Below, piece after piece: positions 14,462 through 31,254 of a stretch of 64,000 bases of DNA. The notes beneath the pieces are model-generated. The model had not been told where the DNA came from. It saw nothing but the letters and a program-made list of their open reading frames with translations, and did not search any database. The stretch's first letter is position 1; every line of letters begins with the position of its first letter. The position numbers were made by a program, and so were the translations under genes. The stretch is from Eledone cirrhosa. Taxonomy: Eukaryota. Where the stretch lies: NCBI GenBank assembly GCA_964016885.1, contig OZ024743.1, positions 300,018,001 through 300,082,000 on the forward strand, read 5' to 3'.

Positions 14462-14679
14462 ATATATATATACATATATATATATATATATGTAGATAAA
14501 TCTACCAAGAGTTTACGGTAGTGTCCAATCCGTATGAAGAACTCAATGTATTCCGGATATCATGGAAAGAAGAGATGTAATGAAAAATCACTTTCGGTGA
14601 AAGATAAACGGTATACAGAGTCAAGATAAAATATTAAACAAATAATGAATAAACAATTCCTTATATTAAACAACAAAAG

Positions 14680-14833
14680 TTCATTATTTAACGATCGTTT
14701 CTAGGATATATATGTGTTAGAGTTGGCATGCATATTCAACAGATCTATGTACAAAATTATACAAAATTATACAAACTATCAAGATTAAATATACATACCA
14801 ACACATATATACGCCGTCTTCAGAAATAATGAA
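14680..14833 (-). ncRNA. Type I hammerhead ribozyme, long stem II (copy 1)
   Basis: Minus strand: TTCATTATTT-CTGAAGA-(~115 nt with TATATATGTGTT/AACACATATATA and GTTGGTATGTATATTTAA/TTGAATATGCATGCCAAC pairing)-GAAAC-GATC-GTT-AAATAATGAA; 10-bp stem I, palindrome AACGATCGTT. Confidence 0.85.
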
Positions 14834-15469
14834 ATATATTTATTGATAATAACAACAATCCAAACTTTCAGGTCCGTTTGGGAACAAAATTGACCAATGA
14901 AAATACAAAAGGTTTAATGCAGTTCGGTGTGTGTATATACATGTAACAACCCTTACACATATTTTACAAAAATGTATGCACAACCTGTATACGCATACAA
15001 AAAGGATGGATGCAAATACAAAATTTCAAGGTTAATGTCTCTGTAAGTTTATAATGCACAGATAAGATGCGTATAGATACATAAATATGAAATAAGTGTA
15101 TACACATATGTTCATACTAACACATATCCGTACAATCACACATACACGCGCGTATATGCATAAACATACACATAAACTACGAACATACAAACACACACAC
15201 ACCCCCACTCACATATATATATGTGGATATAAAATCCTAAGCACATGGATATTAATTCACTCACATAAACACTGGCACACACATTTAGATAAAGATACAG
15301 AAATTAGGTGGGAGGGGGGGGGATAGGTCAGTATTCAACGGTTTGGGCTGACTGCTTAATATAGATGTATCTATAAACTAAGAAAATAAAAAATAATAAA
15401 TAATAAATAAACATTGAAAAGGAAAGAAAAGAAAAAGAAAAAAGAAAAAAGAAAAAAGAAATATATCAA

Positions 15470-26565: not shown

Positions 26566-29500
26566 CCGTAATAGACGGGTTACTTGGTATAATGCTCCAT
26601 TTAATTTACAAATTAAGGATAATATTGCTAACAAATTTTTTTATATCCTAGAGAAAAACTTCCCGCCAAACCACAAATACCATCAAATCTTAAATAGGTC
26701 TACAGTTAAATTCTCATACTCTACAACAAATAACATAAAACAAAATATAAGTGCCTATAATGCATATAAATGTAAGAAAACCATAAGTATACCACCAGTA
26801 CATCAAATTAACCATAATATCTCCTCAAATACAGAATTAACGAAAGGTTGTAACTGTAGAAACAAAGCAAACTGCCCATTAAAAGGGAATTGTCTTGTTA
26901 ACAACATAGTCTATAAATGTAATGTTAAAACTAAAGATTCTATTTGCTCATATATAGGAGCTACCTCTAACAATTTTAAGACAAGGTTTAATACCCACAA
27001 GCATAGTTTTAAAAATGCCGCACTGGCTAATACAACATCTCTAGCAGAAAAAATCAATAGTTATAAAAATAAGAATATAGAATATGATTTGACCTGGAGT
27101 GTGCTCAAAAGAGCCACCCCTTATCAAAATAATAGAAATGAATGTAGATTATGTTCCCAAGAACTATTTGAAATAATGAAATCTAAGGATATCCTATTAA
27201 ATAAACGACAGGAATTAATTATATCGTGTAATCATAAACTAAAAAAAACATTTAAATATTATAAACCTAATTAATAACATTATTTTAGAAATTAATTTAA
27301 TTTGAATGTTAGTTAACTTATAAATTTAATTTAATTAAAATTCTATTACAGATGAGAATATAAAATATTATGTAATCATAAATTGTGAAAAACCTTTAAA
27401 TATTACTAATATATACTTAGTAATTTAATTTATAGATTAATTTTAATTTATTTAAACCTTTTATTATAATTCTTTTACAAATAAAATATAACAAAATATC
27501 GTGTATCCAATGACAGAGAAATAATTTTTAGTATTATAGACCTAATTAATATACATTTTAGAAATATATTTATAATTTGGTTTTAATTTTAATCAACCTA
27601 AAAATTTAATTTAATTGGCTTAAAATTAATATCCTTATACAGACGAATTGCAGAATGTCATCTATCATAGAATGGGATGTGTTTTGGATTTATACCTAGT
27701 TAATATATTCTTTGCAATTTTTGAAAAAATATGTATATGTATATGTGTATGTGTATGTGTGTGCGTATGTATATGTGTATATATGTATATATATATGTAT
27801 ATATATGTATATATATATGTGTATGTATATGTATATGTATATGTATTAATTTTGATTTCTATTTGCATATAATTATATTCTGCTATTGATAAAATACAAT
27901 ATCTGTTTTATTTATTATATACCTAATTAACATATACTATAGAAATAAATATATAATTTTTAATTTAATTAACCTATATTTTATATTCTACTACCGATGT
28001 AATACTTTATTTGTTTTTTCCCTATTACTAAATTCATTTCCTAATATTGATACCATAAAGTTATTAACTTTAATTTAGTTATACTATAATTAATACTCTA
28101 CTACTATTTAACTTAAAAATTCTGCTTCAAATATTATAAACCTAACTAATTTACACCTTAGAAATCAATATGTTAACTATCTTTAGTTTAGTTAACATAT
28201 AATCAATGGTATACTTATTTATTTTGAAATGCATAAATTTTGCCTTATTTCTTGTTTATTGTATTTCCTAACACTGATATTATGTAAAAACATACATTGG
28301 ATCTAGATACGGATAATATTCTGTTTCTTGAAACATATATTTACTATAATCCCCTTCTCCAACCCCCCCCCCCCTTTCCCCCATACTATTATCATCTGTG
28401 TTTGTAAGCGTGTATGTATGAATATATATGTAGGTAGGTGTATATATATTTGGGTATTTATATCTGAATATAAAAATACATATATGCGCATGCAAATAAG
28501 AATGTATGATTGTGTGTGTATATATATATATGTGTGTATGTATGTGTATATGTGTATATATGCATGTGTATATGTATGTGTATGTGTATGTCTGTATGTG
28601 TATATATATATATATATATATATATATATATATATATATATATATGTATATATATGTATATGTGTGTGTATGTATGTATGTATATGTGTGTGTGTATATA
28701 TATGTATGTCTCTCTATTTATATGTCTATCTTCGTATCTATGTGGATATATGTGTGTGTGTGTATATGTATGTGTATATATATATGTATATATATCTATG
28801 TGTGTATATATGTCTATATTCGTATGTGTGTATGTATATATATATGTATATATATGTATATATATATATATATGTATGTGTATATATATATATATTATTT
28901 ATTATTATAATATAACTTATGTGTATGTGTATATGTGAGGGTGTGTATATGTATATATATGTGTATATATATGTGTAAAAAAATATATATATGTGCATGT
29001 CTGCTTTTTATGTGTGTGTATATATATATATATGTGTATATATATATATATGTGGGTGTTTGTATGTGTATTTATGGTTGTATGTGTGTGTGGGTATATG
29101 TATATAAGTGTATGTGTGTATATATATATATATATATATATGTGTATATATATCTCTATTAATGCGTGTATATATGTATATGTATATGCCTTTTTCTTTG
29201 TATGTCTGAGTTGGGTGAGGGTGTAGTGGTGTTTCTATGTATATACGCATATATGGATGCGTTTGTATTTGTATATATGAGTATATGTAAGTGCGTATGT
29301 ATGTATGATTATATATCTAATTCTATGTATGAGTATATATGTGTGTATGTATGTTGTGTGTGTATGTATGTATATGTCTATGTGTGTATATATATATGTA
29401 TGTATGTGTGTGTATGTATCTATGTATATGTATGTATGTACATATATGTCTATGTATGTGTGTATGTATGTGTATGTGTATATATATATATATATATATG

Positions 29501-31254
29501 TATATATATATATATATATATATATATATATATCTTTATTTTTTTTATATATATGTGTGTGTGTGTATGTGTGTGTGTGTGTGTGTATATATATCTTTGT
29601 ATATGTGTATGTGTATGTTCGTGTAGGTGTATGTGTGTGTATGACTATATATGTATGTGTATGTGTGTATGTGTGTGTATATATATCTATGTGTGTGTAC
29701 ATGTATGTATGTGTATGTATGTGTATGTGTGTATGTGTGTATATGTATATATATATATATATATATATATATATATGTATATATATGTGTATATATATAT
29801 ATATATATATATATGTTTCTCTATTTGTATATGTATATGTGTATGGGTATATACCTTTTTCTTTGTATGTCTGAGTTGTGTGAGAGTGTAGTGGTGTTTG
29901 TATGTATATACCGATATATAGATGCGTAAGTATTTGTCTGTATGTATGTATATATGTCTGTATGTATTTGTGTGTATATATAGGTATGTATGTGTATATC
30001 TGTATGTATATATGTATGTAAGTGTATGTATATGTGTGTGTATGTGTGTATATATATGTGTGTCTATATAGTATGTGTGATTATATGTGTATGTATGAGT
30101 GTATGTATACATATATATATATATATATATATATATATATGTATATATATATGTGTATTTATATGTATGTGTGTATATGTATGTATGTGTGTATATGTAT
30201 ATGTTTATATATGTGTGTGTATGTATGTTCTAAGTGTGGATGTGTGTATATGTATGTATGTGTTTGTATATGTGTATGTATATATATGTGTGTGTGTGTG
30301 TGTATGTATATATATATATATATATATATATATATATATATATATATATATATATATATGTATATATATATATATATATATATATATATATATATATATA
30401 TATATTTTCTTGATATATTTCTTTTTTCTTTTTTCTTTTTTCTTTTTCTTTTCTTTCCTTTTTAATGTTTATTTATTATTTATTATTTTTTATTTTCTTA
30501 GTTTATAGATACATCTATATTAAGCAGTCAGCCCAAACCGTTGAATACTGACCTATCCCCCCCCCCTCCCACCTAATTTCTGTATCTTTATCTAAATGTG
30601 TGTGCCAGTGTTTATGTGAGTGAATTAATATCCATGTGCTTAGGATTTTATATCCACATATATATATGTGAGTGGGGGTGTGTGTGTGTTTGTATGTTCG
30701 TAGTTTATGTGTATGTTTATGCATATACGCGCGTGTATGTGTGATTGTACGGATATGTGTTAGTATGAAAATATGTGTATACACTTATTTCATAGTTATG
30801 TATCTATACGCATCTTATCTGTGCATTATAAACTTACAGAGACATTAACCTTGACATTTTGTATTTGCATCCATCCTTTTTGTATGCGTATACAGGTTGT
30901 GCATACATTTTTGTAAAATATGTGTAAGGGTTGTTACATGTATATACACACACCGAACTGCATTAAACCTTTTGTATTTTCATTGGTCAATTTTGTTCCC
31001 AAACGGACCTGAAAGTTTGAATTGTTGTTATTATCAATAAATATATTTCATTATTTCTGAAGACGGCGTATATATGTGTTGGTATGTATATTTAATCTTG
31101 ATAGTTTGTATAATTTTGTATAATTTTGTACATAGATCTGTTGAATATGCATGCCAACTCTAACACATATATATCCTAGAAACGATCGTTAAATAATGAA
31201 CTTTTTTTGTTTAATATAAGGAATTGTTTATTCATTATTTGTTTAATATTTTAT
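26564..31254 (+). repeat. Inverted 5'-truncated copy of the PLE including ORF remnant 26564-27274
   Basis: AACCGTAATAGACGGG.. is the reverse complement of 26125 leftward; open frame NRNRRVTWYN..YKPN* to 27274; ends ~135 bp short of the element 3' end, running into (TA)n. Confidence 0.95.
31047..31200 (+). ncRNA. Type I hammerhead ribozyme (copy 3)
   Basis: TTCATTATTT (31047-56), CTGAAGA (31057-63), then GAAACGATCGTT and AAATAATGAA (31191-200). Confidence 0.85.

Follow-up and report, generated by a model that had tools for sequence, protein, structure and literature searches.

A TA/TG microsatellite born in the 3' untranslated region of a Hydra-clade Penelope-like element of Eledone cirrhosa, and its probable growth along one line of master copies

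The Hydra clade of Penelope-like elements (PLEs) comprises retroelements with one open reading frame (ORF), in which a reverse transcriptase (RT) is combined with a C-terminal GIY-YIG nuclease; its described traits include RWx and DKT motifs, a CxCX5C linker, CxxC and CxH motifs, a (TA)n target, and a hammerhead ribozyme motif near the 3' end (PMC8557442). The complete elements listed in that description are 2,084–2,729 bp long, and an octopus member, Hydra-1_Obim, has 2,507 bp. A PLE sharing these traits was found in a 64,000-nucleotide stretch of Eledone cirrhosa DNA (contig OZ024743.1, positions 300,018,001 to 300,082,000; hereafter the window). However, its unit is 6.7–6.9 kb long, with a 3.8-kb microsatellite 3' untranslated region (UTR) and a hammerhead stem II of about 115 nt, and its hammerhead is unlike that of Hydra-1_Obim in sequence. 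The element thereby more than doubles the range of lengths published for the clade; the source calls Hydra elements “generally short (<3 kb),” which this unit is not, but gives the trait as typical and not as defining. The size matters for annotation, since simple-repeat masking would split such copies. Judged from its sequence, the element is a Hydra-clade PLE that inserts into (TA)n. We consider it probable that its 3' UTR lengthened from 0.72 kb to 3.6–4 kb through a TA/TG microsatellite arising within the UTR and through local duplications, and that the added length built up as one succession of master copies was reverse-transcribed again and again, not in DNA at rest.

The carriage of simple sequence repeats (SSRs) by PLEs has been described in Litopenaeus vannamei, in which young Penelope copies (>98% identical) hold internal SSRs at syntenic positions, hence moved with the element (PMC7878876). 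SSR carriage and an enrichment of long (AT)n are common to both cases, and transposable elements were proposed there as SSR carriers. In contrast, the clade, a series of repeat birth in a master line, and a test of self-targeting were not found in the passages of that study considered here, and in the Eledone family carriage explains only about 1% of the repeat. L1 and Alu seed microsatellites internally, and some long interspersed nuclear elements target microsatellites (PMC3812793). Those L1/Alu repeats mature after insertion, whereas in the window PLE a mature kilobase-sized repeat is inherited and enlarged along the active line; the element also targets the same repeat type that its own tail carries. 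Stepwise microsatellite growth in a PLE 3' UTR was not found in the literature covered by our search, which lay outside most subscription journals and the Repbase reports, and the word Hydra is absent from the main text of a paper on Octopus vulgaris repeats (PMC13282606). The Eledone family offers a rare ordered series, in which a microsatellite is born and grows tenfold inside one retroelement line while dormant copies serve as same-age controls. With this series, repeat addition through slippage of a telomerase-related RT becomes open to test. The family also allowed the idea of mobile elements seeding their own targets to be sized, and in this PLE family the effect is near 1%.

Self-alignment of the window showed that positions 14491–31254 hold three copies, 99.1–100% identical in their unique parts. 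The three copies and their ends had been correctly recognized in an earlier note on this DNA; what that note took for a 16.8-kb element, however, is an array from one PLE insertion with direct, tandem, and inverted copies, whose repeating unit measures 6,704 bp. A single PLE insertion commonly takes such a shape, and at other loci of the genome the spacing of tandem units is about 6.9 kb. Because copies A, B, and C come from one insertion, they are not independent evidence and cannot by themselves show that the tail is mobile. The array and its older relative are laid out as follows.

5950..7480, minus strand: decayed copy of the same lineage from its old, short-tailed stage; a short interspersed nuclear element (SINE) was inserted afterwards in the 3' UTR
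14464..14490: (TA)n target tract, left side
14491..21194, minus strand: copy A, whole 6,704-bp unit by self-alignment, with short 5' UTR, ORF, long 3' UTR, hammerhead, and fixed 3' end
21195..26565, minus strand: copy B, 5'-truncated tandem copy beginning at unit position 1442
26564..31254, plus strand: copy C, inverted 5'-truncated copy, unit positions 1882–6569
31255..31360: (TA)n target tract, right side

The mobility of the tail was evident from dispersed copies. In the order of the tail's islands of unique sequence, copies A, B, and C agree with one another and with copies dispersed over 15 contigs. In a sample of 20 of the 40 best matches to the 3' end, fetched up to a limit of 10 kb, all 20 loci kept the island order, and 15 preserved a continuous arrangement of ORF, tail, and hammerhead; the other five begin inside the tail or end at the 10-kb limit. 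The tail therefore travels with the element, as had been proposed, and the microsatellite block is family-wide rather than linked to the PLE only at this locus. Whole-genome counts gave 3,780 exact 3' ends followed by TA (a count that presupposes the TA), 2,156 exact ORF anchors common to old and young copies, 723 perfect hits for an island within the core (present twice in some tails), 1,473 matches with at most one mismatch to an island at the core start, and 10,803 hammerhead 3' halves. The tail has been carried to over a thousand places. At C1:126.83–126.87 Mb and C1:183.73–183.77 Mb (C1 being a contig of the assembly), four or more long-tailed units stand in tandem at a spacing of about 6.7–6.9 kb, and these are candidate source loci.

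The length of the tail was followed across subfamilies. For the first 56 ORF anchors in position order on contig C1, a hammerhead was found downstream in 51, and among these copies the stop-to-hammerhead distance rises with ORF identity to the window copy (Spearman 0.93). Young tails are about five times longer than old ones, as the four identity classes show.

Under 88.5% ORF identity: 19 copies, 704–954 bp (median 725), 0 bp of alternating repeat
88.5–93.5%: 13 copies, 978–1,962 bp (median 1287), repeat 0–388 bp (median 169)
93.5–97.4%: 7 copies, 1,944–2,672 bp (median 2456), repeat 216–857 bp (median 621)
Above 97.4%: 12 copies, 3,188–3,988 bp (median 3566), repeat 1,222–1,909 bp (median 1402)

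A tree of the ORF (996 nt, 29 copies) forms a single ladder, along which the tip branches shrink from 0.024–0.038 in short-tailed copies to 0–0.005 in long-tailed ones (rho −0.90 for 27 rows, without L080, which served for rooting, and L181, which has a long branch). This shrinkage of the tips suggests that the short tails came first. During the initial 0.13 of change along the backbone the tail remained at about 0.72 kb, and it lengthened only once a TA seed was present. With that UTR added to the ORF and ends of the window copy, the unit of the old stage is estimated at about 3.6 kb. The parts of the present unit are listed below.

14491..14626, minus strand: 135-nt PLE “tail” between two fixed ends, direct copies ending at 14491 and inverted ones at the equivalent of 14626
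14680..14833, minus strand: type I hammerhead motif, with CUGAAGA at 14823–14817, a stem II of about 115 nt, and GAAA at 14701–14698; palindromic stem III, stem I, and a predicted cut after 14690
14834..15474, minus strand: distal 3' UTR, partly TG/TA repeat, near the hammerhead homologous to the old short tail
15475..17480, minus strand: compound TA/TG microsatellite core with degenerate islands and nine (TA)10+ tracts
17498..17527, minus strand: poly-C run (a G run on the plus strand), which the first microsatellite adjoins in older subfamilies
17530..18600, minus strand: AT-rich part of the 3' UTR, decayed tandem units of about 95 nt from the ORF end, with a small second TA/TG tract at 18031–18148
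18603..21044, minus strand: 813-codon ORF for a telomerase-like RT plus a GIY-YIG-type C-terminal nuclease with Hydra motifs; TAA at 20624–20622

The events in the UTR follow one order (copies L201, L076, L191, L061, L052, L077, L056, and L204): the C run lengthens, (AAT)n appears, then (TA)11, and then a compound TA/TG array between the same flanks. After (TA)11, the alternating repeat grows from 0.15–0.4 kb to 0.6–0.9 kb and to 1.2–1.9 kb. The microsatellite was thus born in place beside the poly-C run, and duplications supplied the remaining length. The earlier note had proposed that the 3' UTR expanded by about 3 kb of simple repeats; a gain of about 3 kb is correct, but some 1 kb of it is AT-rich duplicated ORF-end sequence. 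A reading of the tail as a captured cassette does not hold, as the intermediates show the repeat arising in place. One-step capture of a genomic microsatellite block, by read-through to a downstream truncated copy, is possible in principle in such microsatellite-rich surroundings, but it is refuted for this genome by graded intermediates with the same flanks on either side of the repeat. Local duplication or misassembly is refuted likewise by the order kept in the dispersed copies, and the tail islands are covered by contigs of three independent public sequencing runs (two under one organism label, one under another). Taken together, we regard these explanations as scarcely credible.

Several points weigh against the reading of stepwise growth in the master line. 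The tree has no outgroup, and its direction rests on tip lengths and on the published Hydra lengths. As some anchors share an insertion, the 51 copies include dependent ones, and the whole set was drawn from the first 85 Mb of a single contig. Nor was growth always in one direction: on a derived branch, L082 and L084 have tails of 3.15–3.19 kb beside 4.15 kb in the sister L121, and L206 has 1.94 kb. The flanks, 510 kb in all, hold 31 arrays of 500+ bp, and since long lopsided TA/TG arrays are common outside the family, the host expands such repeats too. A long-tailed copy was present in one of twenty background loci, somewhat above the count-based prediction, so the genomic share of the family given below may be a few-fold above 1%. 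Finally, the data do not tell RT slippage apart from a choice of long-tailed masters or from drift through bottlenecks of masters. A derived subfamily, to which L082, L084, L092, L111, and L116 and many short copies belong, has a shorter core (its tail measures about 3.15 kb), and many of its copies consist of the hammerhead end only.

The comparison of active and dormant lines bears on where the growth took place. Since the stage of 1.3–1.4 kb, the active line has changed by about 0.10 per site, and the dormant copies left at that node by 0.005–0.007; the latter hold 183–279 bp of repeat. Because both lines have passed the same clock time and the dormant cores are short, slippage in resting DNA alone does not explain the growth, which likely occurred in the RNA-to-DNA step or through the choice of long-tailed masters. 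An explanation by host DNA slippage and drift alone, in which the repeat grew in resident masters as in other arrays of the genome, is in keeping with the long compound arrays of the flanks and with tract lengths that differ even among copies A, B, and C. It is nevertheless improbable, as the 13 dormant copies at 88.5–93.5% identity reached 0–388 bp of repeat in the time in which the 12 youngest acquired 1,222–1,909 bp.

Selection for long tails would also produce near-monotone growth in the active line and leave the dormant copies short. Under this explanation, copies with more UA/UG repeat would more often become masters, for example by pairing with the (TA)n target, by helping 5' joining, or by stabilizing the RNA, and the repeat does match the target sequence. 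However, the derived branch lost about 1 kb, the islands outpace synonymous sites (in L202 they are 68–85% identical at a synonymous difference, pS, of 0.10), priming appears to occur at two fixed sites downstream of the hammerhead and away from the repeat, and the tail sets the ORF 4.1 kb from the priming site. We therefore consider such selection unlikely, though less so than host slippage. Growth during the RNA-to-DNA step is favored over it because the ORF is equally accelerated, the islands outpace synonymous sites, and one branch shed 1 kb. Under this explanation, transcripts would run across tandem units, and reverse transcription would be target-primed at two internal sites of the RNA, in analogy to an anole PLE described below; RT slippage and template jumps on (UA)n/(UG)n would then be the source of length, and the tail would be an unselected passenger. 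A more specific version, which we put forward tentatively, is that realignment of the telomerase-relative RT on (UA)n/(UG)n templates favors the gain of repeats, whereby the microsatellite in the element's RNA, and possibly the (TA)n of the target as well, would become longer in each round. If so, successive additions of repeats by a Penelope RT would be preserved in the genome in dated order, and other PLE lineages with tails of this type could together be an appreciable source of long compound microsatellites.

At the junctions, direct copies end at one fixed site. A TA-type tract was present at 18 of the 20 best-match 3' ends, and the other two were tandem junctions, which agrees with the (TA)n targeting previously supposed. 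The second end, that of the inverted copy, lies 135 nt upstream of the direct end and was also found against (TA)n, in 49 of 100 insertions; this number is a minimum, as some insertions were too long for the 3-kb loci examined. Flanking TA runs averaged 34 bp per side (n = 100) and 37 bp (n = 49), the expected run being 25 bp if tracts of 20+ bp are hit by length and 33 bp if only tracts of 40+ bp are. Either the element prefers long tracts or insertion itself adds TA. In the Anolis Poseidon element PAc, two internal RT start sites define a “tail,” both target strands are extended, and the hammerhead is dispensable for insertion in vitro (PMC11167929). By analogy, the two fixed ends of the Eledone element may correspond to two such starts with two-strand extension. 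The PAc sites are 30–40 nt apart, lie inside the ORF start, and are not homologous to the cut DNA, whereas those of the window element are 135 nt apart, lie in the UTR, and both end in letters that continue into (TA)n.

The contribution of the family to the repeat content of the genome was estimated from 40 position-ordered insertions (exact ends 31–70), four of which run past the fetch limit. The median span was 550 bp; 21 insertions were at most 600 bp long, and 16 carried 500+ bp of alternating repeat. The mean per insertion was 642 bp of alternating repeat and 3.7 (TA)10+ tracts (122 bp). Scaled to 3,780 insertions, this gives 2.4 Mb of alternating repeat, about 14,000 (TA)10+ tracts, and 0.46 Mb of pure (TA)10+, which are lower bounds since some insertions lack an exact end. 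For the genome, taken as 3.0 Gb, twenty fixed 10-kb loci gave about 230 Mb of alternating repeat (128–359) and 2.2 million (TA)10+ tracts (1.2–3.5, 95% bootstrap) spanning 75 Mb (43–113). The share of the family is thus about 1% of the alternating repeat and 0.6% of (TA)10+ by tracts as well as by length; a threefold undercount would leave it at about 3%. The family affects the genome little for two reasons: the majority of insertions end short of the repeat block, and targets, at about 2 million tracts, are not limiting.

These estimates bear on the proposal that each insertion deposits kilobases of (TA)n and thereby creates its own targets, a self-amplifying route to microsatellite-rich genomes. 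The tail is indeed mobile, a full tail brings 4–12 (TA)10+ tracts, and the exact-ended insertions have added some 14,000 of them. Nevertheless, 122 bp of pure (TA)10+ in an average insertion falls far short of kilobases, and the additions are set against 2.2 million tracts and 230 Mb of alternating repeat. Nor was a clear nested event observed: a family tail island lies within 1.45 kb downstream in two of the first 100 exact ends on C1 (L084 and L211), and no family end interrupts the core in 48 complete cores. In L084, unrelated sequence separates the end from the tail island. L211 abuts an older family tail through a TA/TG tract of about 1.1 kb and would be the one case in favor, but it is ambiguous since there is no host tail on its other side. 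Furthermore, the lineage had already spread widely without the repeat, as the 19 oldest copies carry none. We therefore regard target seeding as a driver of microsatellite richness as very unlikely. The counts fit a use of tail tracts at their share of about 0.6% or not at all, and a dominant loop is excluded.

Within copy A, the tail from the ORF stop to the hammerhead measures 3,770 bp. Tandem Repeats Finder (TRF) covers 1,808 bp of it (48%), and alternating purine-pyrimidine runs of 20+ make up 1,464 bp (39%). (TA)5+ accounts for 474 bp, and pure (TA)10+ for nine tracts of 311 bp in total. The description of the tail as mostly compound TA/CA repeat was therefore overstated; the rest is AT-rich, and about 1 kb consists of decayed copies of the unit of about 95 nt from the ORF end, which is not a simple repeat. 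A block of about 0.6 kb was duplicated in the core (islands near 16688 and 16021) as a late event. The open frames of the tail lie within the TA/CA repeat. The core is strongly biased on the RNA strand, with 327 TG and 5 CA. A-to-I editing was rejected as the source of TG, since singleton changes in the islands are balanced (22 A>G, 21 T>C); it is also disfavored by the 31 unrelated arrays of 500+ bp, 55% of which are at least 95% lopsided.

The hammerhead was located on the minus strand from 14833 to 14680, at the position anticipated. The region folds with a z-score of −6.5, and the core is kept across the ladder of subfamilies. As in many Hydra hammerheads, the first position of stem II is unpaired and the predicted cut follows a U (PMC8557442). 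Among nine related copies, two-sided changes were seen in 3 of 44 consensus pairs, and the predicted consensus differs from the active fold at the core. An Rfam search returned no hammerhead match; its matches were limited to repeat-like microRNA models, which scored under their cut-offs. Copies of the 1.0–1.4-kb stage (L052, L077, L188, L189, L056, and L173) have an additional, broken hammerhead start (CTGAGGTC), which stems from a duplication of about 190 nt upstream of the intact start. The SINE at window positions 6356–6535 recurs in the 3' UTR of other older copies (L052, L055, L058, L173, and L210) as repeated insertions, which often lie just upstream of the hammerhead core. The older relative in the window was described correctly, at about 5950–7480 with 900 bp from stop to hammerhead including a SINE of about 175 bp. 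A SINE in the window seems to resemble an octopus SINE.

The ORF ends with its stop at 18603, as had been read before. Copy A is the only copy in the window with a full-length ORF, which is interrupted by TAA at codon 141. This stop occurs in none of 11 other ORFs read from the same start; five of these are open for 813 codons, two for 807–810, and four stop earlier elsewhere. Between the node of 1.3–1.4 kb and the young copies, the ratio of nonsynonymous to synonymous differences (pN/pS) was 0.27–0.28 at a pS of 0.21–0.22, which indicates purifying selection. The protein model had a predicted local distance difference test (pLDDT) score of 84.9, and its top four Foldseek matches were telomerase RTs (E 1.5e-9 to 1.2e-8); no nuclease was among the 50 fold matches shown for the whole-chain model. 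Pfam gave no match in the query protein, and weak RVT_1 and GIY-YIG matches in 3 of 47 homologs each; a PDB sequence search returned only two chance matches.

In the alignment with homologs, the C-terminal nuclease pattern VYKC..YIG..R..H..E..N is conserved, and the Hydra motifs are RVRWRAY (RWR instead of RWK) and SDKTGN (DKT). The linker CxCX5C reads CNCRNKANC, and CxxC (ECRLC) and CxH (SCNH) stand around conserved E and N. Read by eye, the same alignment shows no CCHH in the nuclease: CxxC is lacking between the GIY and YIG strands, and so is a second His (TSLAEKI). Other PLE traits present in the element are partial copies in tandem and inverted orientation (pseudo-LTRs, in the manner of long terminal repeats) and a terminal tail. 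A Naiad/Chlamys PLE was ruled out by nuclease motifs that are C-terminal and not N-terminal. ORF residues 477–573 (L007:4364–6802) form a disordered N/K/T-rich insert between the RT thumb and the linker, with pLDDT under 50, which is longer than in most homologs; low-complexity growth may also affect the ORF.

Other repeats were observed in the window. A decayed PLE of another family (RT, a CINRKCIIC linker, and GIY-YIG remains) adjoins the target tract on the left at 12300–14460 on the plus strand. Its 3' UTR is rich in AAAT/CA (13960–14200) and is ended by a hammerhead-like motif near 14215–14250, and this family may show the same UTR trend. It is abundant, since contigs matching 14300–14499 equal those of the studied family in depth. 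By self-alignment, an inverted repeat of 2.2 kb, unrelated to the PLE, occupies positions 33525–35752 (97.5% over 476 bp; a palindrome within it is centered near 34947), and positions 58480–59616 hold a 628-bp direct repeat (94%). The latter and a GC-richer stretch at 59900–63000, with several open frames of 110–230 codons, likely represent another mobile element.

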